A DNA stretch of 64,000 nt from NCBI GenBank assembly GCA_016187835.1, contig JACPIY010000028.1:33455-97454 (forward strand). The letters are read 5' to 3'. The number at the start of each line of letters is the position of its first letter. Position 1 is the stretch's first letter. The translations under genes were made by a program, and so were the position numbers. The notes under the pieces are model-generated. The model had not been told where the DNA came from and made no database searches. It was given only the letters and a program-made list of their open reading frames with translations. Shown here piece after piece: positions 10,365 to 46,575 of this stretch. Source of the stretch: Deltaproteobacteria bacterium (GTDB lineage: Bacteria; Desulfobacterota_D; UBA1144; Nemesobacterales; CSP1-2).

Positions 10365-10847
10365 GCGGACCTACTATGTGGTTTCACCAATTCTCAATTT
10401 TCGTAAACTGAAAGAGATAAAAGTGGTGAATGTCTTCGTTCATTTGTTGATTATGTGGAATTTGTCTTTTTTCGGAGGATCTAAATAAAATGTCTTATTA
10501 AGTCAAGGGCATAGGGGAAAATTCTGGAACTGGAACGACATCCCTACGGTCAATTTTTGAGGGTACCTTATTAAATCTTTCCTTATTCCCATGATTGTTC
10601 TGCCCTTCAAGAAATGCCTATATTTTGTCTACAAAAGCTTACTTTATAAGCAGTAAAGCATGGTAAAGATACCTAGAAAAGACAAAGACTGCTCCGAGGG
10701 GTTGCTTGTTTCCAAGGAGGTGTGTCGGAGCAGTCTTTGGATAAGCCTACTCATTTAGTTTGTTTGGCAATACTCGTGCCACTTGTGATTCATGTGATAT
10801 ATTAAATAAATAAATAAATAAAAAAATTCTCAGATAGTGAAGAACAA

Positions 10848-23032: not shown

Positions 23033-24577
23033 ATGTTAGATCGAATCAATGTTGATTTAATAGAGCAGATAAAGGAGAAGATTTTCAGTATCGTTTTAGA
23101 CTCTCAAAAAATCCTCAACAACTGTCACTACATAGATTTGAGGATAGGAGTAAGTGAGTCCAAATATGCCGTAGCCCAAAAAGGTGCTCCGAAAGAGGGC
23201 AGGGAAGAAGCGCAGATGTCTTTTAGTCTAAAGACGGTAGCGGGAGATCGCTTAAGAGCTTCCGGATACTTCGCCTCTTATCTTGGTGCGTCCGATCTAA
23301 AAAGGCTGGAAGTTGTTATAAAGGAAGGTATTGAACATGCTTACAGGCGTGCGCTGGCAAATGCTTCACTAAAGCTAAAGATGAAAGATATTCTGGGGGA
23401 ACTTGGAGAGTCAATATCGAGCACTAATCTTTCTCCAATTGAAATTTATAAAGATACTGTTGCTTTCCCCATTAAAGAAGACTCAAGAGGTATTTCACTT
23501 GAGAGCATAGTCAAAGAGGCGGTTGGCATATCTGATTCGGTTGAAAAACTCTATGAGTCCAATGGCTACAATGTGATTTCCATCTATACAACTATTGCTA
23601 GAGAGCTTTTTGCATCGTCAGAAGGAGCTCTAATTGATCAAACATACCCTCTTACGGAGGGCTTTGCTTATGTTCTTGTCGGAGACGAGCCGAACTATGA
23701 CCATTTGGGTGGAAGGTGCGGATGGGAAGCAATTCATGGAGAAAATCACTTTAATAAAACCTTTCATGATTTTGCTTTGGATCTAGCAAGAGAAACCATA
23801 GAACTTTCTAAAGCTGAAGTGCTTCCTTCCACCGATAAGGAGGTAGTGGTCGTTACAAACCCTCACTATAACGCCCTTCTCGTCCACGAAATCATAGGTC
23901 ATCCGGCCGAAGCGGATAGAGCGCTCAAAACAGAGACTGCCTACGCTGGAAGAAGCTGGTTATTCAGGGGATTTGATAAGAACCAGATCGGGAAAAAAGT
24001 AGCGTCTGATTTGGTAACCGCTTATTCAGATACTTCCCTCCCAGGTTATGGAAATTATAAGTACGACGCTGAGGGAGTAAGAGGGAAAAAAGTAGTTCAT
24101 ATTGATAAGGGCTTATTTCGGGGATTTTTAAACAGTCGTGAAACTGCGACAATTCTCGGCGAGGAGCCAAACGGTGCTATGCAGGCACCCTATACCTATT
24201 TTATTCCGCTCGTAAGGATGACAAACACGGTGTTTGCTCCCGGGGAGAGAAATCCTGAGGGAATAATCAAAGAGGTGGATGACGGATATTATCTCGTGGG
24301 TCACCATACACCTTCAATCGGAGAATCACGAGAGAATTTTAGTATATCGGCACGTCGCGTTCATAAAATAAAAAACGGCGAGCTTGTAAAGCTCTATAGA
24401 AGCGGAGGAATGACTTCAGATTCAAGGGATTATTTGATGAACGTTGATGCTGTGGGGAATGATTTTCGATTGTTTCCCATGCCAAACTGCGGAAAGGGGA
24501 TACCCATGCAGGCGCTTCGGGTGGGAAACGGAGGGCCAACTATGCGTAGCAAGGCAAGGCTTAGGGGTGGGAAGTAG
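23033..24577 (+). CDS. tldD: TldD-family metallopeptidase
   Basis: LLVHEIIGHPAEADR is the HExxxH motif. Overall length and C-terminal region are TldD-like. Confidence 0.8.
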   Translation: MLDRINVDLIEQIKEKIFSIVLDSQKILNNCHYIDLRIGVSESKYAVAQKGAPKEGREEAQMSFSLKTVAGDRLRASGYFASYLGASDLKRLEVVIKEGIEHAYRRALANASLKLKMKDILGELGESISSTNLSPIEIYKDTVAFPIKEDSRGISLESIVKEAVGISDSVEKLYESNGYNVISIYTTIARELFASSEGALIDQTYPLTEGFAYVLVGDEPNYDHLGGRCGWEAIHGENHFNKTFHDFALDLARETIELSKAEVLPSTDKEVVVVTNPHYNALLVHEIIGHPAEADRALKTETAYAGRSWLFRGFDKNQIGKKVASDLVTAYSDTSLPGYGNYKYDAEGVRGKKVVHIDKGLFRGFLNSRETATILGEEPNGAMQAPYTYFIPLVRMTNTVFAPGERNPEGIIKEVDDGYYLVGHHTPSIGESRENFSISARRVHKIKNGELVKLYRSGGMTSDSRDYLMNVDAVGNDFRLFPMPNCGKGIPMQALRVGNGGPTMRSKARLRGGK

Positions 24578-24764: not shown

Positions 24765-26243
24765 TTGATGATTACCATAGAAGACCTAAGAAAATGCGTA
24801 AAAGACGGGATTCAATTTGTTGAATCTCAAAATGATATTAGAGAAGCTGAGATATTCGCTTCCTGGAACGACAACGTGACGGTTAGAATCAATTACACAT
24901 CCGATATTCCGTGTAATGGTGTCCATGAGCCAAAAAACATCGTCGGGTATGGAGTTGGCATTGTAGCTGTGTTTGACACACCTGAGGGTTTCAAAATAGG
25001 CTCAGGAAGCGATACTGGAGACTTGAGCCCTGAGGGAATAAAGAGGGCCTTTGAGAAAGCCAGACAAAATTCGGTGAGCGACCCTAATTTTAAATCCCTC
25101 CCCCCTCCACCCGATGAAACACCCAAGCTTATTTCATATCATGACATGAACGTGATGAATTTAATGGATGAAGACATGGTCTCTCTTGGCTGGAGTGCTT
25201 TAAAGGGCGCTCTGTTGACATTTAAAGACGCGGGTTTTCTAAAGAGCCTGATTGTGGGAGGCGATGTTACGATTCTAAAAGAGAGAATGGCGATAGCAAG
25301 CACTCTAGGGATTGATGAATATGATGAGTCCTCCGCTCTCTTTGCATCCATTACTTCAATGATTGAGGAAAAGGATGCAAAAGGCACTGGGTGGACTACT
25401 GCGACTCATCTTGACAAGTTCAAACCGGAAGAAGCTGGAGCGATGGCGGCGATAAGCGCGATAAGCACTATTGAAGGGACGAGGATAAGATCGGGAAGCT
25501 ACAACGTGGTTTTTGGAAGGCAAGCCGTCGCCATGCTTTTCTCGGAGATGATAATTTCAGCATTATCCCTTAACTCAATAGATTCGGGTAACTCTCCCTT
25601 CGTCGGGAAGTTAGGGGAAAAGGTCGCTTCCGACATTGTTTCTATATATGATGACGGGGCAAGACTCTGGGAAGTCGGGAGCAAAAAAATTACCTGTGAG
25701 GGAATTCCTACGGGAAGGACAGATTTAATAGAAGAGGGAAGACTGGTTGGATTTCTTTCCAACAACTACTATGCGAAAAAGCTAGAGAGCAACGTTGCCA
25801 AATTTACACCGAGAAACGGGTTTAGGTTTGGAGATTTGGGAAGGGATTTTAGGCAAAACAATTCTATTTTTGCTACGAATCTTGTGATAGAAGGAACGAG
25901 GGAATTGGACTCCGGAAAGCTGATTTCCCATGTAAAGGATGGAATCTACATTGGAAGACTCTGGTATCTCTATCCGGTTCACGGACTGGTAAAGGCGGAC
26001 TTTACTGGGACCGTGATTGGCGATTCGTATATAATCAGAAACGGAAGATTGGAAGAGCCGCTCAAACCCAATACCGTGAGAATCAGCGATAACTTTGTAA
26101 ATCTCCTCCAAAACATCACGGGAATATCAGAAGAGAAAAGAACTACGATGATCTGGGATTCCAAAGAGGTTGTGATTGCCCCTGAGATTGCTGTTAAAGG
26201 AATGAGTCTCGAAAACGTTGCTGAGTTTGTGGAGGAGTTGTAG
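24765..26243 (+). CDS. pmbA: PmbA/TldE-family protein, partner of TldD
   Basis: TldE/PmbA family features (…GDSYIIRNGRLEEPLKPNTVRISDNFVNLLQNI…). It has no HExxH. It lies immediately downstream of tldD. Confidence 0.7.
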   Translation: MMITIEDLRKCVKDGIQFVESQNDIREAEIFASWNDNVTVRINYTSDIPCNGVHEPKNIVGYGVGIVAVFDTPEGFKIGSGSDTGDLSPEGIKRAFEKARQNSVSDPNFKSLPPPPDETPKLISYHDMNVMNLMDEDMVSLGWSALKGALLTFKDAGFLKSLIVGGDVTILKERMAIASTLGIDEYDESSALFASITSMIEEKDAKGTGWTTATHLDKFKPEEAGAMAAISAISTIEGTRIRSGSYNVVFGRQAVAMLFSEMIISALSLNSIDSGNSPFVGKLGEKVASDIVSIYDDGARLWEVGSKKITCEGIPTGRTDLIEEGRLVGFLSNNYYAKKLESNVAKFTPRNGFRFGDLGRDFRQNNSIFATNLVIEGTRELDSGKLISHVKDGIYIGRLWYLYPVHGLVKADFTGTVIGDSYIIRNGRLEEPLKPNTVRISDNFVNLLQNITGISEEKRTTMIWDSKEVVIAPEIAVKGMSLENVAEFVEEL

Positions 26244-33000: not shown

Positions 33001-33702
33001 ATGAGTGTATTCGAACCCTTTATAGGAATAACCACCGATATAAAAACAGATGTAGCTAAGGAAGAAAGTTTCCTGATAGAAACGACCTATGCCAGGGCTA
33101 TTGCCAAGGCTGGCGGTATTCCGGTTCTCCTTCCATTGCTTTCTGCAAACGGTTCTCTTCTTGAAAATTTGGTAGCGAAAATAGACGGGCTTCTTCTTCC
33201 CGGCGGAAGGGATATGGATCCTAAATTCTACAACGAGGAGCCGCATCCAAAACTAAGACTAATGAGCCTTGAGAGAACCGAATCGGAGATGGTGATATTA
33301 GAGGAAGCTTTAAAGAGAGACATACCCGTTTTGGGTATTTGCGGCGGTATGCAGCTTATAAACGTTTTCTTTAAAGGCTCGCTATATCAAGACATTCCTT
33401 CTCTAGTACCTAATGCCCTGATCCATGAAAAGGGCTCGGTCCATAAAATTTATGTTGAAGAAGGGACGCTTCTTCAGGAAATAATCCAGGAAAAGAGCTT
33501 CTCTATAAAGAGTTATCACCACCAATCCGTAAAAGCGCTGGGAAGTGGACTCAGAGTTTGTGCAACGTGCCCGGATGGGGTTATAGAGGCAATAGAGGGC
33601 ACCGATTCTTTTATTCTTGGGATTCAGTGGCATCCTGAAAGGGAAGAGAGCGAGATTTCAAAAAGGATTTTTAAGGCTTTTATGGATGAGTGCAATAAGT
33701 AA
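33001..33702 (+). CDS. Gamma-glutamyl-GABA hydrolase-like class I glutamine amidotransferase (peptidase C26)
   Basis: LLLPGGRDMDP...VLGICGGMQL...IQWHPE is the catalytic Cys-His-Glu triad context. Confidence 0.75.
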   Translation: MSVFEPFIGITTDIKTDVAKEESFLIETTYARAIAKAGGIPVLLPLLSANGSLLENLVAKIDGLLLPGGRDMDPKFYNEEPHPKLRLMSLERTESEMVILEEALKRDIPVLGICGGMQLINVFFKGSLYQDIPSLVPNALIHEKGSVHKIYVEEGTLLQEIIQEKSFSIKSYHHQSVKALGSGLRVCATCPDGVIEAIEGTDSFILGIQWHPEREESEISKRIFKAFMDECNK

Positions 33703-36650: not shown

Positions 36651-37367
36651 TTGGATTTACTACAGTCTATTGTTCTCGGAATCGTGCAAGGTATCACAGA
36701 GTTTCTTCCCATAAGCAGCACCGCACATCTGGCTCTTATCCCCTGGTTTTTTAAGTGGAATGACCCCGGGCTTGCTTTTGATGTTGCTCTACACATAGGA
36801 ACCCTTGTTGCTGTGATCTATTACTTCTGGCGTGAATGGGTGGTGATTATAAGAGGATTAATACAAGGTTTGCTCTCAGTAAGCTTTGCAAAAAATCCCA
36901 ATGGGAAGCTGGGAGTATATATCATCATTGCAACCATACCTGGAGCACTCTCAGGGTTTATATTTGAGGAGCAAGCATCTGGAATACTTAGACACCCCAT
37001 TGCTATTGCGGTCTCAGTCTTTTTCTTTGGAGTAATTCTTTACGTATTTGATAAATTCTCTAGAAAAGAAAAAGGAATTTCGGATTTAAATATTTTTGAT
37101 TGCCTGGTGGTAGGGATTGCTCAAGCTTTTGCGATAATTCCTGGAGTATCGCGCTCTGGAGTTTCAATTACAGGCGGTCTAATTAGATTAGATTATGCAA
37201 CCGTTGCAAGTCCTCCATTCATCGTTGGAATTCTCACGTCCGCCCTTTTTGGTTTTCTAAGCATAAAGTATCTTCTAAGATACCTTCAAGCTAAGACCTA
37301 TACTGTGTTTGTTATATACCGCGTAGCGCTGGCAGCTTTTATTTTATTTCTTTATTTTGGCAGATAA
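36651..37367 (+). CDS. uppP: Undecaprenyl-diphosphatase
   Basis: MDLLQSIVLGIVQGITEFLPISSTAHL is the BacA/UppP signature. Confidence 0.85.
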   Translation: MDLLQSIVLGIVQGITEFLPISSTAHLALIPWFFKWNDPGLAFDVALHIGTLVAVIYYFWREWVVIIRGLIQGLLSVSFAKNPNGKLGVYIIIATIPGALSGFIFEEQASGILRHPIAIAVSVFFFGVILYVFDKFSRKEKGISDLNIFDCLVVGIAQAFAIIPGVSRSGVSITGGLIRLDYATVASPPFIVGILTSALFGFLSIKYLLRYLQAKTYTVFVIYRVALAAFILFLYFGR

Positions 37368-37434
37368 GTTGCTTCTTGCGCTCAGGGTTCTTCAATGCAG
37401 GATGTCAAGTATACTAAGTGAGTCAGTTGCTCTC

Positions 37435-37576: not shown

Positions 37577-39274
37577 ATGCGCCTCAGAATATTGTCAATA
37601 TTTTTCATAATCCTCTACCTGTCGTTTCATTCCATCGGTGAATTGAAAGAACAGAGAAGCGATCTTGGTGTAATGAAAGCCATGCAAGAGGAGTTGAATC
37701 GCTCCTGGGAAAAGCTCAGGCTGGATGGCTATGAGTCTCCCTACTTTATAAGCTATCAGATTAAGGACAATACCTATTATAGTATAGAGGGGAAATACGG
37801 CGCTGTTGTATCGTCCGATAAGAACCGAATGAGACGTCTATTTGTGGATGTGCGCGTGGGCAATTACGAATTCGATAATTCGATAAGGGGACAGTCCGGA
37901 GGCAAGGTGCCTTTTTATAACGCTTCCTATATTCCGGTTGACAATGACGTTGATGCTATAAGAGCCGTTTTATGGCAGGCGACGGATTACGCCTATAAGG
38001 AAGCCCTCTCCCAGTATTTCAACAAGAAGGCAAATTATGTCCAGAAAGTGAAGGATGAGAATTTTGCGAGCTTTTCTCGTGAAAATAGTAATGTCTACTA
38101 TGATCCTGAAGTCAACTTGTTTTTTGATCCCAAGGAGTGGGAAAGTAAGATAAGAGAGATTTCAGCCATATACAAAGACTATAAGGAACTGATAGATGCC
38201 GATTTGGATATAACCGCTCAGAAAGAAACTACTTATTTCATTAATACCGAAGGGACACGATACATAAGAGATGAGATTCTCTATTCCGTGGACGCAGAGG
38301 TAACGACGAGAGCAGAAGACGGGAAGATTATTAAAAACTATAGAAACCTGTACTACGTATTACCGGAGGACTTGCCTTCGGTTGAAATGATAAAGTCGGC
38401 AATAAGAGAAATGGTCGAAGAGACCATAAAACTGAGAGAGGCGGAGGTGCTTACTCCAATAAGCGTCCCTGCCATACTCGAACCTGAAGCAGCAGGGATT
38501 GTATTCCATGAGGCTGTTGGACACAGGCTTGAGGGTGAAAGGCAGATTGACGACAGGGAAGGACAAACATTCAAAGAAAAAGTAGGAGAGAAAATAGTTC
38601 CAGCTTTTCTTTCTATCTTTGATGATCCGACAATGAAAGGCTTAGGTGGAACTCACCTTGTCGGATATTACCCGTTTGACGACCAGGGAGTACCGGGGCA
38701 GAAAGTCCTTTTGGTACAACACGGGGTTTTAAAGAATTTTCTCCTTTCCCGCACCCCTATTGAAGGTTTTAATAAATCGAACGGTCACGGAAGAGCCTCA
38801 TACGGAAGGGCGCCGATGGCAAGGATGAGCAGCCTTATTATTAAGTCTGATAAGGAATACACGAAAGAGAAGCTGAAAGAACTACTTATAGAGGAAGTAA
38901 AACGTCAGAATAACCCCTTTGGGCTTATAATTGAAAGAATGGAAGGTGGCGAGACAAACACCTCGTCTTACGATTTTCAGGCCTTCAAAGCAACGCCCCT
39001 TGTTGTCTATAAAGTTGATCCCAAGACAGGGAATGAAACACTTGTGCGGGGTATAGAAGTTGTGGGGACACCAATTGTTTCAATTAACAAGATTATCGCT
39101 ACCGGAAATGATTACGCAGTGTTTAATGGATTCTGCGGAGCTGAATCCGGATATGTCCCTGTCTCTACGGTTGCTCCAAGCATACTTATTTCGGAAATAG
39201 AGCTTCAGCGCATCTCTGAGAAGAAAGAAAAGCTCCCTATTCTTCCCCCGCCGTTTTTTGACGGGAGTGAGTAG
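37577..39274 (+). CDS. TldD/PmbA-family metallopeptidase paralog with an N-terminal signal peptide
   Basis: GIVFHEAVGHRLEGER HExxxH motif. The hydrophobic N-terminus is MRLRILSIFFIILYLSFHS. Confidence 0.7.
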   Translation: MRLRILSIFFIILYLSFHSIGELKEQRSDLGVMKAMQEELNRSWEKLRLDGYESPYFISYQIKDNTYYSIEGKYGAVVSSDKNRMRRLFVDVRVGNYEFDNSIRGQSGGKVPFYNASYIPVDNDVDAIRAVLWQATDYAYKEALSQYFNKKANYVQKVKDENFASFSRENSNVYYDPEVNLFFDPKEWESKIREISAIYKDYKELIDADLDITAQKETTYFINTEGTRYIRDEILYSVDAEVTTRAEDGKIIKNYRNLYYVLPEDLPSVEMIKSAIREMVEETIKLREAEVLTPISVPAILEPEAAGIVFHEAVGHRLEGERQIDDREGQTFKEKVGEKIVPAFLSIFDDPTMKGLGGTHLVGYYPFDDQGVPGQKVLLVQHGVLKNFLLSRTPIEGFNKSNGHGRASYGRAPMARMSSLIIKSDKEYTKEKLKELLIEEVKRQNNPFGLIIERMEGGETNTSSYDFQAFKATPLVVYKVDPKTGNETLVRGIEVVGTPIVSINKIIATGNDYAVFNGFCGAESGYVPVSTVAPSILISEIELQRISEKKEKLPILPPPFFDGSE

Positions 39275-43750: not shown

Positions 43751-43996
43751 TTACTTTTTTTTGTATAAATCACGAATGTCAATTTCCTCACCATCTGGTG
43801 TGATAATTCTGGTTTGATTGTTCATTGTTACAATATGGAGTTCTGCGGTTCTGCCATCATCAAATTCTAGCCTGTACGCCTTGCCCACCATTTTATCAAC
43901 ACTACTGAGGATTTTGCCTTTTAAGCCCGGTTCATATTCCATATCGCCCATTTTAATCTTGGTCTTCACCACAAATCTTGCGCCTGGTATGTACAT
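43751..43996 (-). CDS. Small hypothetical protein (81 aa), possibly with a small beta-barrel (SH3/Tudor-like) fold
   Basis: The ORF has a KKK C-terminus. I recognise no family. Confidence 0.35.
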   Translation of the reverse strand: MYIPGARFVVKTKIKMGDMEYEPGLKGKILSSVDKMVGKAYRLEFDDGRTAELHIVTMNNQTRIITPDGEEIDIRDLYKKK

Positions 43997-44523
43997 TATT
44001 TAGCCCTCTCAAAAAGCGATAATATCTTTTTATAAGAATATGTTACGTATAAAATTATCTTATTACAATTGTTTTCGAGCATGGGACATCTAAATCTGTG
44101 AATCCCTACTGGCATAGCAAGCTTTATCTTTTGCTTTCTAATCTGTCTCATCTTACATCGGACACGAAGAAAGAACTTTTCTTGAACCATAAATGATTCC
44201 TAGTTCTGAAATCATTCCAAGGTACTATTGTAATTCTAGAGAATTAAACCTGATATTATTTGAAGATTTATGGGGATCCTAAAGTTTGAACAACATTTTT
44301 AGCCTGTAGCTCAATATGTTGATATGTTCTGAAAGATAGTTTAGTTAAATGACAAAAATCATTGTAAGTGAAGAGGGGAAATTTGCATTGATGACAAAAT
44401 TTGTCTTTTGTGCTCCAAGTTTGGGTCTCAATGTTGCGAAAAATGGACTCTTTTCCTTGTTAAAGATACTTAAAATTTGTTTTTATTAGGAACAACAGTA
44501 AGTTAGCGACAGTAAGGTGAATT

Positions 44524-44539
44524 TGGCACATATATTGCC
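44524..44539 (+). promoter_or_regulatory. Sigma-54 (RpoN) -24/-12 promoter, TGGCAC-N5-TTGCC
   Basis: Exact match to the GG-N10-GC consensus (TGGCACatataTTGCC), about 70 nt upstream of the 44609 small ORF. Confidence 0.5.
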
Positions 44540-44608
44540 ACTATCAAACTATAGGAATTATGGATAAATTAAAATTTGAAAGTCAGGTTAATTTTCTAGA
44601 GGTGCAAA

Positions 44609-44776
44609 ATGAAATATGAGGGCGAAAAAAAACAGTTGGTAGATGGATTAGTATTTATCTTTGATCAGAGAACCGGTGAATTGGAAGTAGTAGAAACTCA
44701 GAATAATTGCGATGGGGAAACACTAAAGGGGACAAATGCCGAATCCAGTGACGAAAGCGATGTTATATCAGATTAA
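44609..44776 (+). CDS. Small acidic protein (55 aa), hypothetical, preceded by a sigma-54 promoter
   Basis: ATG with agaggtg 6 nt upstream. It reads MKYEGEKKQLVDGLVFIFDQRTGELEVVETQNNCDGETLKGTNAESSDESDVISD. It is flanked by a promoter and a terminator. Confidence 0.4.
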   Translation: MKYEGEKKQLVDGLVFIFDQRTGELEVVETQNNCDGETLKGTNAESSDESDVISD

Positions 44777-44883
44777 TCTTTTTGAGGAATTTCAACGTTT
44801 ATATTATTTGCAATAATGTGCTTATTACACTACTTATAATTGCTAAGTTGTAAATATAAATTTATCAAAGAGTTCCCATCCTC

Positions 44884-44930
44884 CAAAGGGTAGGCTGGTT
44901 AAAACATATTTAGTTGGCTTACCCTTTTTT
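44884..44930 (+). terminator. Rho-independent terminator (11-bp stem, 21-nt loop, T9)
   Basis: aaagggtaggc ... gcttacccttt followed by ttttttttt. Confidence 0.5.
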
Positions 44931-44964
44931 TTTGAATACAACACTACAACTACCAGTTAAAGAT

Positions 44965-46098
44965 TTATGAAATTAGCTTAGGATAAACTGGCCTTGACTC
45001 AGCTATCTCTTCGGGATAGACGATAACCTTGTTTCCATTCCTCCACTGAACAATTACCATTTTGTGGCCAATCTGAGTACCTGTAGATTGGTCGATCTTA
45101 AAATGACCATAAAAGGTTTTAAAATCAGCTCTGCTTGCAGCTTCTCTAAGAGCATAGTCATCGAGCGTTCCGGCATCTTCAATACACTTTTGGATAACTG
45201 GTCCTATATTATAACTTTGAGCTGCGGTATAGTCGGGTTCCTTCCCATATTTATATTTGAACCTGATAAAAAAATCCTGAGGTGTCGGTCCAAGGTCGGG
45301 TTCTATTTTAATTCCCCCCTCCCATTGGCTTGGTCCCAAAAATCCCTCTACGTCTTTTCCGAGAGTTTGATGAAACTCTTTTATACCGGCTACGACAAGT
45401 CCTATCGCTTTTGCATTTACTTTATTTTCTACAATTTGCTTAGCAAGGAGCAAGTCATCCTCGGCGCGTCCTACGCCGAGGATTAGGTCGGGGATATTTT
45501 CTTGCACCTGTTTTAGAAGAGAGGAAAAATCCTTTGTGCCTGATACATATTTAAGCTCGGTTATCCGGAACCCATTTTCTTCTCCGTAGCGCTTTGCCCC
45601 TTCTGCTACATTTGTGGAAAATCCGCTGTCTTCCGCTCTAAATATAGTAATCTTCCTTGCTTCGTTATCGATTTTTTTTACCATTTCAATAATTCCGACA
45701 AAGTATTTACTAGCAGATGTAATCGTACTTACGATATATTTAGATCCACTCTCAAAAATCTCATCGGATGACCCGCCATGATTCCATAGAATTTTTTTGA
45801 ATTCTTCTGCAATCGGTGCTGCTGCTAGGGTAAGACCGCTTGAGTAAGGTCCTATTAGAACATCAACTTTATCTTTAACGATAAGCCGTTCCACGATTTC
45901 CTTACACTTATATGTCGAACTTTCGTCATCATAGTAAAGAAGTTCTACCGTAAATTTTTTACCGAATTCCTTGACAAAAATACCGCCAGATCCGTTTACG
46001 TCTTTAATCCAAAGTGCAAGCCCTTCAAGGCTCTCTTTACCTTGATTTGAATATCTCCCACTTAATGAGATAGGAATGCCGAATTTTATCTTTTGCAT
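44965..46098 (-). CDS. Periplasmic-binding-protein type I substrate-binding protein (branched-chain amino acid ABC transporter SBP-like)
   Basis: The FGIPISLSGRYSNQGKESLEGLALWIKDVN pattern is that of the LivJ/LivK family. No signal peptide is seen at the called start. Confidence 0.7.
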   Translation of the reverse strand: MQKIKFGIPISLSGRYSNQGKESLEGLALWIKDVNGSGGIFVKEFGKKFTVELLYYDDESSTYKCKEIVERLIVKDKVDVLIGPYSSGLTLAAAPIAEEFKKILWNHGGSSDEIFESGSKYIVSTITSASKYFVGIIEMVKKIDNEARKITIFRAEDSGFSTNVAEGAKRYGEENGFRITELKYVSGTKDFSSLLKQVQENIPDLILGVGRAEDDLLLAKQIVENKVNAKAIGLVVAGIKEFHQTLGKDVEGFLGPSQWEGGIKIEPDLGPTPQDFFIRFKYKYGKEPDYTAAQSYNIGPVIQKCIEDAGTLDDYALREAASRADFKTFYGHFKIDQSTGTQIGHKMVIVQWRNGNKVIVYPEEIAESRPVYPKLIS

Positions 46099-46183: not shown

Positions 46184-46575
46184 TTTTCACCCTCTGTCAA
46201 ATTTCTCAAGGCTGTCACTCCTAGGGTTTCTACCTCACAGCCAGTACTTAGCAAAGCAAGTAATAAGGTCCGCTGAGCAATCTGACAAAAGGTGTTATTT
46301 CTCGAAGGCTAAGATTTCTCCCCCATGAGATATGAAATTATCTCACGGGGTCGAAATGACATGAGGGGAGGTCGAAATGACAGGTGGGTCGGTCAAAACG
46401 ACAGTCTCATTTGTCATTCCGAACCCTGTCCCGAGCGAATGTGAGGGAGCTTGTGAGGAATCTTGTTGTTTTCAGGATGACAGGAGAAACGGTTGAATGA
46501 CAGTTACTTGATAGGAATTATTAAACTAGGTGAGACTTGGCTCCACATTGTCTGTTTGGTCAAATTTAGTTTTTT
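46184..46575. repeat. Intergenic repeat element copy 1 (about 390 bp)
   Basis: It is largely colinear with copy 2 at 54664-55050 and near-identical to it over several stretches (not computed). It contains the hairpin ccccatgagata-tgaaat-tatctcacgggg and the modules gtcgaaatgaca(2x) and ggtcggtcaaaacgacagtctcatttgtcattccgaaccctgtcccga. Confidence 0.65.

Follow-up and report, generated by a model that had tools for sequence, protein, structure and literature searches.

Bacterial small RNAs whose transcription depends on sigma-54 include Qrr, GlmY/Z and CrcZ, and in SgrS an open reading frame (ORF) comes first and a base-pairing seed lies beside the terminator. SgrS/SgrT is one of several dual-function small RNAs, together with SR1/SR1P, RNAIII/hld, AzuCR, Spot 42/SpfP and VcdRP (reviewed in PMC12612679 and PMC12310071). 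GlnZ is a small RNA released from the 3′ untranslated region (UTR) of the sigma-54/NtrC-dependent glnA mRNA (PMC9731577). The unpaired anti-Shine–Dalgarno seeds of NfeR1 (CCUCCUCCC) block ribosome-binding sites, including those of mRNAs for ABC-transporter binding proteins (PMC10746234). Sigma-54-dependent non-coding RNAs are also known from Campylobacter (CJnc230; PMC11187230) and from the Desulfovibrio vulgaris regulome, which holds four (PMC4641369) and comes from the same phylum as the DNA described here. That DNA, from an uncultured Dadabacteria-like bacterium (Thermodesulfobacteriota), is a 64-kb stretch (the window; all positions given below are counted from its first nucleotide) covering positions 33,455 to 97,454 of contig JACPIY010000028.1 in assembly GCA_016187835.1. 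Within it, we describe a short plus-strand unit that combines a sigma-54-type promoter, a gene for a 55-aa acidic protein, a conserved 3′ non-coding block and an intrinsic terminator.

On balance, we favour reading this locus as a sigma-54- and enhancer-dependent small-protein gene whose transcript has a 3′ module that functions as RNA, and which is perhaps a dual-function RNA with an anti-Shine–Dalgarno seed. This account of transcript and translation rests on sequence and conservation and on predicted folds. A preliminary interpretation made from the letters of the window (the sequence-only reading) had suggested an RpoN-dependent small protein or regulatory RNA, and the suggestion is supported by the kept reading frame, the promoter footprint and the behaviour of the unit as a module. 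As to the choice it left between small protein and RNA, the answer seems to be a protein and, probably, an RNA as well.

The comparison that carries this reading covers five lineages: the window itself, L001/L002, L003, L004/L005 and L006/L018, of which all the relatives are metagenomic and the last pair is the most distant. Across these lineages the whole unit is kept, from the promoter through the ribosome-binding site (RBS) and start codon and the N-terminal half of the ORF to the terminator, while the flanks and most of the UTR sequence are not. We measured this as the share of alignment columns in each segment that are invariant in all five lineages. The upstream flank has 12 per cent invariant columns, the promoter 76 per cent (16/21), the 5′ UTR 24 per cent and the RBS/ATG segment 67 per cent (10/15). 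Within the ORF the share is 63 per cent in the N-terminal half and 35 per cent in the C-terminal half. It falls to 11 per cent in the variable part of the 3′ UTR, rises to 85 per cent in a 33-nt block made up of the stretch before the terminator stem and the 5′ arm of that stem (44867-44899), and stands at 89 per cent in the 3′ arm and U-run before dropping to 3 per cent in the downstream flank.

The promoter lies at 44524-44538 on the plus strand and reads TGGCAC-ATATA-TTGC (TGGCACATATATTGC), the exact −24/−12 consensus that the sequence-only reading had reported at 44524. TGGCAC (44524-44529) and TTGCC (44535-44539) are separated by a 5-nt spacer, with the −24 GG at 44525-26 and the −12 GC at 44537-38. 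Exact TGGCAC-N5-TTGC strings occur twice in the 64-kb window, compared with 0.11 expected from shuffled sequence (1/100 shuffles reached two); both copies are intergenic, and each faces a short unit with a terminator-like hairpin at its end. The motif is found at the same place in L001-L006 and L018. Its GG, GC and spacing are invariant across the five lineages, and changes fall only in the spacer and in the base after TTGC: L006/L018 carry TGGCAC-GTACA-TTGCC (ATATA replaced by GTACA), and L003 and L004 have TTGCA where the window has TTGCC. This C/A variation fits the sigma-54 consensus TTGCW. The −12 element is followed by the start codon at a distance of 68-82 nt across lineages. Because the first gene upstream runs the other way, the unit needs a promoter of its own, and no sigma-70-like promoter was found on the plus strand within the intergenic gap. 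From these sequence features we infer that the unit depends on sigma-54. The documented sigma-54 regulons of cultured relatives in the phylum, which are large and include non-coding RNAs (PMC4641369), make for a favourable prior. For Dadabacteria themselves, our literature search turned up no paper on sigma-54 or RpoN.

Two TGACAAWAAW repeats farther upstream are possibly sites for an enhancer-binding protein. Candidate site 1 (TGACAAAAAT, 44350-44359, plus strand) lies ~174 bp 5′ of the −24 element and is a 10-nt block shared by the window, L003 and L006/L018 amid upstream DNA that otherwise cannot be aligned. Candidate site 2 (TGACAAAATT, 44392-44401, plus strand), ~132 bp 5′ of the −24 element, is conserved in the window, L002, L003 and L006. 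The two repeats are exactly 42 bp apart in both the window and L006/L018.

Sigma-54 promoter geometry would place the transcription start ~12 nt past the −12 GC, giving a predicted 5′ UTR at 44550-44608 (plus strand) in the window and one of 56-70 nt over the five lineages. Its sole conserved motif is AGGAAUUA (44553-44560, plus strand). The RBS proposed in the sequence-only reading, GAGGTG, is present at 44599-44604 (plus strand), 4 nt 5′ of the ATG at 44609, and is kept in the relatives, all lineages carrying AG[A/G]GGTG followed by ATGAAATA. Every lineage also has a short upstream ORF (uORF) with AGGA or AAGA before it; over the window, L002, L003, L004 and L006 its lengths are 19, 8, 8, 7 and 11 codons. 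In the window the 19-codon uORF (44560-44619, plus strand) runs across the main start codon in a different frame. The uORF peptides are not conserved among the five lineages. The uORF may serve translational coupling or masking, or it may have arisen by chance in AT-rich sequence.

The small-protein gene occupies 44609-44776 on the plus strand, as the sequence-only reading had it. Its product is identical to hypothetical protein HYW01_04915 from a metagenome-assembled genome labelled Deltaproteobacteria bacterium. Homologues of 51-54 aa and 63-89 per cent identity are encoded in the other four lineages: P0002 (53 aa, 89 per cent identity to the window protein) at L001/L002, P0003 (52 aa, 81 per cent) at L003, P0004 (54 aa, 65 per cent) at L004/L005 and P0007 (51 aa, 63 per cent over 38 aa) at L006/L018. 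Loss of the frame in relatives had been named beforehand as something that would refute the sequence-only reading, yet all four of these lineages retain it under strong purifying selection. By the Nei–Gojobori method, dN/dS over codons 1-30 is 0.04-0.07 in comparisons with L004 and L006, for which dS has reached or passed saturation; over the whole ORF it is 0.14-0.30 for most pairs. Variable columns fall 21/12/30 on codon positions 1/2/3, and the core LVFIFDQRTGELEVVE is intact in L004 despite eight synonymous differences. Judged by this substitution pattern, the ORF is truly coding and a real protein gene.

The most conserved segment of the unit is non-coding and had been overlooked in the sequence-only reading. 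After a variable, AU-rich part of the 3′ UTR (44777-44866, plus strand), ~45 nt of which are deleted in L004, comes the stretch AGUUCCCAUCCUCC at 44871-44884 (plus strand), which abuts the terminator hairpin and is identical in all five lineages even though their synonymous sites are saturated. Since only 11 per cent of the neighbouring UTR columns are invariant, 14 invariant columns in a row are not expected by drift. The stretch contains an anti-Shine–Dalgarno-like CCUCC at 44880-44884 (plus strand), the complement of the GGAGG ribosome-binding sequence. In L006 its CAUCCUCC portion has a predicted unpaired probability of 0.5-0.8, and in three other lineages this rises to 0.8-1.0. The AGUUCCCAUCCUCC block is unique in the window and in 202 kb of sequence. 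An exact search of species-representative genomes for the 3′ block returned 0 matches, and a covariance model of the 3′ module found no additional copies in the 202 kb of sequence. No Rfam family matched the window at gathering thresholds, and relaxing the threshold to E values up to 10 for 44300-44990 gave only chance-level matches.

The intrinsic terminator (44885-44933, plus strand) consists of a hairpin at 44885-44927 and a T9 run at 44925-44933. The sequence-only reading had the hairpin and the T9 run right; its 11-bp stem becomes one of 18-19 pairs (3-5 of them G·U), and the T-run ends at 44933 rather than 44930. Five substitutions separate the hairpins of the five lineages, each of them one-sided, and all five retain the pairing of the stem. 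The primary sequence of the hairpin is also close to fixed, beyond what termination needs. On the minus strand the 3-5 G·U pairs turn into A·C mismatches, and the covariance model gives the plus strand 96 bits and the minus strand 15 bits; together these indicate that the element acts as a plus-strand RNA.

We considered two minus-strand accounts of the conservation at the 3′ end. A bidirectional terminator also serving the convergent gene was rejected on the G·U mismatches, the absence of a U-run on the minus strand and the persistence of the block beside a different convergent gene. A 33-aa minus-strand ORF as the cause of the conservation was discarded on the same evidence against minus-strand function.

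Under the favoured reading, RNA polymerase with sigma-54 would bind the −24/−12 promoter at 44524-44538, and an enhancer-binding ATPase would open it, possibly from the TGACAAWAAW repeats 132 and 174 bp upstream. Transcripts would begin near 44550 and end with the hairpin/U9 terminator (44885-44933), giving a monocistronic unit with a predicted length of ~385 nt. The mRNA would encode a cytoplasmic, strongly acidic small protein, and its 3′ end would be a second functional element acting as RNA, in which a largely unpaired AGUUCCCAUCCUCC is set against a near-invariant, G·U-rich hairpin. We favour such a second, RNA-level function because the 3′ element is conserved, is predicted to be accessible in its CAUCCUCC part in four of the five lineages, and has precedents in NfeR1 and GlnZ. 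What the element would do is a more tentative matter. It may be a seed that pairs in trans and occludes the GGAGG ribosome-binding sites of other mRNAs, a possibility that we take seriously while holding it at somewhat less than even standing; that it is a cis-acting or protein-binding/stability module seems to us slightly less probable again.

Several observations weigh against this reading. Only five lineages are known, and three of them are mutually close. The CAUCCUCC seed is predicted to be paired in L004, there is no double compensatory change in the hairpin, and the transcript as a whole shows no excess of structure over its shuffles (z = +0.24), as would be expected for an mRNA. Duplexes of the seed with the translation-start regions of the window's ORFs (79 with a length of 100 aa or more) are not stronger than background, with a mean energy of −9.7 kcal/mol versus −9.1 kcal/mol. 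The TGACAAWAAW repeats are short and statistically not distinctive. The window contains no motif of RpoN, an enhancer-binding protein, Hfq or CsrA; its six-frame translation has no RpoN-box, and a GAFTGA or Walker-A activator motif is likewise missing from the 64 kb.

The strongest competing account is that the unit is an ordinary small-protein mRNA in which the 3′ block serves only in cis, through termination, 3′-end protection, binding of a stabilizing protein, or pairing with the 5′ UTR that closes the mRNA and masks the uORF. In partition-function folds, GUUCC of the block pairs with the 5′ UTR at a probability of ~1 in the window, L002 and L003. The candidate closing helix joins GGAAUU (44554-44559) to AGUUCC (44871-44876), with a variable second helix in addition, and so involves the one conserved motif of the 5′ UTR. 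The 5′–3′ duplex has a z-score of about −2 in the same three lineages, and no trans target stood out in the window scan just described. However, the duplex energies do not go beyond those of shuffles in L004 (z = −0.06) or L006 (z = −1.2), and in a cross-lineage control cognate 5′–3′ pairs were no better than non-cognate pairs. The first helix never varies and is therefore uninformative. Termination has no need of the 14 invariant nucleotides 5′ of the stem, and the block would pair only weakly with the RBS that precedes its own ORF (−5.9 kcal/mol in most lineages). A purely cis role for the block strikes us as rather less likely than not, although it is the alternative with the most in its favour.

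The other two alternatives concern the promoter and the ORF. TGGCA and TGCCA are reverse complements, and in L006 these arms extend to TTTGGCA/TGCCAAA, so TGGCA-N7-TGCCA could be a dyad operator bound by a dimeric transcription factor, with the unit read from an unrecognized promoter of another type. We find this quite improbable. The C-to-A change gives L003 and L004 a TTGCAA downstream arm that would break the dyad and that comes nearer to TTGCW, the gap lacks a plus-strand sigma-70-like promoter, a second exact copy of the motif precedes another short terminated unit, and the distance to the ATG is preserved. A purely non-coding small RNA with a fortuitous ORF might be proposed on the grounds that the ORF is short and without a family match and that conservation is strongest in the 3′ non-coding block. 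Against it stand the low dN/dS with saturated synonymous sites, the dominance of third-position variation, a length held at 51-55 aa and the conserved RBS and ATG, and we give this idea almost no credence.

Like the ORF that encodes it, the small protein has a conserved N-terminal part and a more variable end. The window protein has a pI of 4.1 and a net charge of about −9.5, and members of the family range from pI 4.05 to 4.4 and from −6.5 to −13.5 in charge, with no hydrophobic segment. The acidic C-terminal tail varies: most lineages end in DESDVI, L006 ends in ENDIVQE, and the window protein is two residues longer owing to a TAA-to-TCA change, its tail reading DESDVI(SD). An AlphaFold model places strands at residues 6-11, 14-19 and 24-29 (pLDDT ~80) and leaves residues 33-50 disordered, so that the predicted fold is a three-stranded beta-sheet with a disordered acidic tail. 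As a guess, the protein might bind a partner through added beta-strands or use its tail as a linear motif.

The sequence-only reading had recognized no family for this protein, and our searches agree. Pfam, NCBIfam, PADLOC and PDB-sequence searches gave no family (PDB sequence matches had E above 1), and PHROGs returned a single non-significant match (E 0.33). A Foldseek comparison of the AlphaFold model with PDB structures yielded nothing significant, the best matches being generic three-stranded sheets of RiPP recognition elements (E 0.5-1.3). A profile search run exhaustively over 1.8 billion representatives added no small relatives; in it the small-protein family forms three clusters at 50 per cent identity, one of which matches the query's own lineages. 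By these searches, the small acidic protein is a new, tiny and unannotated microprotein family. Its known homologues come only from the four lineages beyond the window, all from metagenomes and all in the Dadabacteria/Thermodesulfobacteriota group.

The remaining matches of the profile search are PD40 repeat proteins, which match one hairpin motif. The core LVFIFDQRTGELEVVE is similar to a strand-turn-strand motif, DVFVFDRQTGxLELVS, that recurs 5-6 times in proteins with PD40 beta-propeller repeats (WD40-like, TolB-type, PF07676), and the profile resemblance covers residues 15-36 of the small protein. Unlike PD40 propellers, the small protein has one hairpin-like unit and no Pfam match, and we did not assign it to PF07676; a beta-hairpin motif common to both, rather than membership, probably explains the likeness. 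An interpretation as a RiPP precursor was also dropped, because no modifying enzymes are encoded nearby and the recognition-element fold matches are non-significant.

The unit sits in an intergenic gap of 968 bp (43997-44964) with 30-37 per cent G+C, compared with 40-50 per cent in the adjoining genes, in line with the AT-rich gap of ~1 kb estimated from the sequence alone. On its left, the gap is bordered by an 81-codon ORF (43751-43996, minus strand) divergent to the unit, and on its right by a Peripla_BP_6-family gene for a solute-binding protein (44965-46098, minus strand), which converges on the unit. The genes around the unit encode an ABC-F ATPase, the 81-aa protein without a family, the solute-binding protein and an aminotransferase. 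These neighbours have close homologues in genomes labelled Candidatus Dadabacteria or Thermodesulfobacteriota; in the NCBI taxonomy, Dadabacteria is a class within Thermodesulfobacteriota. The solute-binding-protein gene adjoins the unit in the window, L001/2 and L006/18. The downstream neighbour is different in L003/L004, and in L004 it is a 758-aa gene. In L020, the 81-aa gene and the binding-protein gene both have homologues, and these adjoin one another with no unit between them; L007, L017 and L019 are likewise without the unit. The unit, described as self-contained in the sequence-only reading, moves as a self-contained, clade-restricted module.

The 81-aa ORF has identities of 94 per cent in L003, 74 per cent in L018 and 66 per cent in L020, the last being a locus where the gene is retained and the sigma-54 unit is absent. 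Protein libraries gave no family for it, and an NCBIfam intein_Nterm match was below the cut-off. A sigma-70-like promoter at 44046-44019 (minus strand) fits this ORF. The ~300 bp between that promoter and the candidate activator sites (44050-44350), to which no function is assigned, are near-identical in the window and L003 and cannot be aligned with L006/L018.

The second exact sigma-54-type promoter in the window (TGGCACGAGTATTGCC, 10781-10766, minus strand) lies between an adenylate/guanylate cyclase gene and the gene, divergent from it, for a 163-aa membrane protein. Downstream of this promoter comes a candidate RNA of ~80 nt, the whole feature spanning 10675-10781 (minus strand), with a 15-bp hairpin (10738-10684) and a U-rich tail (10683-10675). 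The hairpin loop exposes CACCUCCUU at 10722-10714, and the fold has a z-score of −5. We take CACCUCCUU to be identical to the 3′ end of 16S rRNA. This RNA has no match in Rfam, and in three related contigs that carry a homologue of the 163-aa gene no such unit was found next to it. It is a more doubtful idea that the acidic protein and the 3′ seed CCCAUCCUCC act in one response and, with this second hairpin RNA exposing CACCUCCUU, make up an enhancer-dependent riboregulator set that would damp translation through competition with ribosomes for GGAGG sites. In addition, a near-consensus TGGCAG-N5-TTGCT occurs at 37358-37373 (plus strand), 204 nt 5′ of a PmbA/TldD-like ORF (37577-39274), and on the strength of this motif may mark another member of the same regulon.

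That ORF is one of three PmbA/TldD-type metallopeptidase paralogues within 16 kb (23033-24577, 24765-26243 and 37577-39274). Between the binding-protein and aminotransferase genes there is a G+C-rich island (46314-46500, up to 48 per cent) with direct repeats of GGTCGAAATGACA and inverted copies TGTCATTCCGAACCC, which looks like a dispersed repeat element. Hairpin-like repeats were also seen by eye in related intergenic regions (L014 1-300, L015 9870-9960 and L020 7360-7480).

Taken as a whole, the locus provides a comparatively supported regulatory module, made up of promoter, small protein, RNA element and terminator, in a class known only from metagenomes, and adds one further conserved microprotein family without annotation. 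Should the 3′ block prove to act in trans as a seed, the unit would be, to our knowledge, an early example of a dual-function RNA driven by sigma-54, and it would give a handle on post-transcriptional control in Dadabacteria. Both small genes or RNAs under sigma-54 control and dual-function RNAs belong to recognized classes, and the locus leaves current understanding in place.

Among the described systems, the unit resembles dual-function RNAs in its predicted design: a few hundred nucleotides transcribed independently, from a promoter of their own to an intrinsic terminator, with a small ORF towards the 5′ end and a conserved candidate pairing stretch by the terminator hairpin. It differs from the SgrS/SgrT class in its sigma-54-type promoter, in having no sequence or Rfam relationship to it, in a protein that at ~55 aa is at the long end of the size range, and in that base-pairing is hypothetical here. 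As with GlnZ, the 3′ end of a sigma-54-type mRNA, including its terminator, bears a seed (here a candidate); the parent mRNA here encodes a 55-aa protein instead of an enzyme, and there is no homology between the two. The unit shares with NfeR1 and with AbcR1/2 of alpha-rhizobia an ultraconserved C-rich motif, CCUCCUCCC and unpaired in those RNAs, CCCAUCCUCC and predicted to be largely unpaired here, though with one such motif rather than three and with that motif placed inside a coding transcript. Finally, the unit would be a stand-alone short transcript behind a −24/−12 promoter, as sigma-54-dependent RNAs are, and unlike the non-coding members of that group it encodes a protein under selection.

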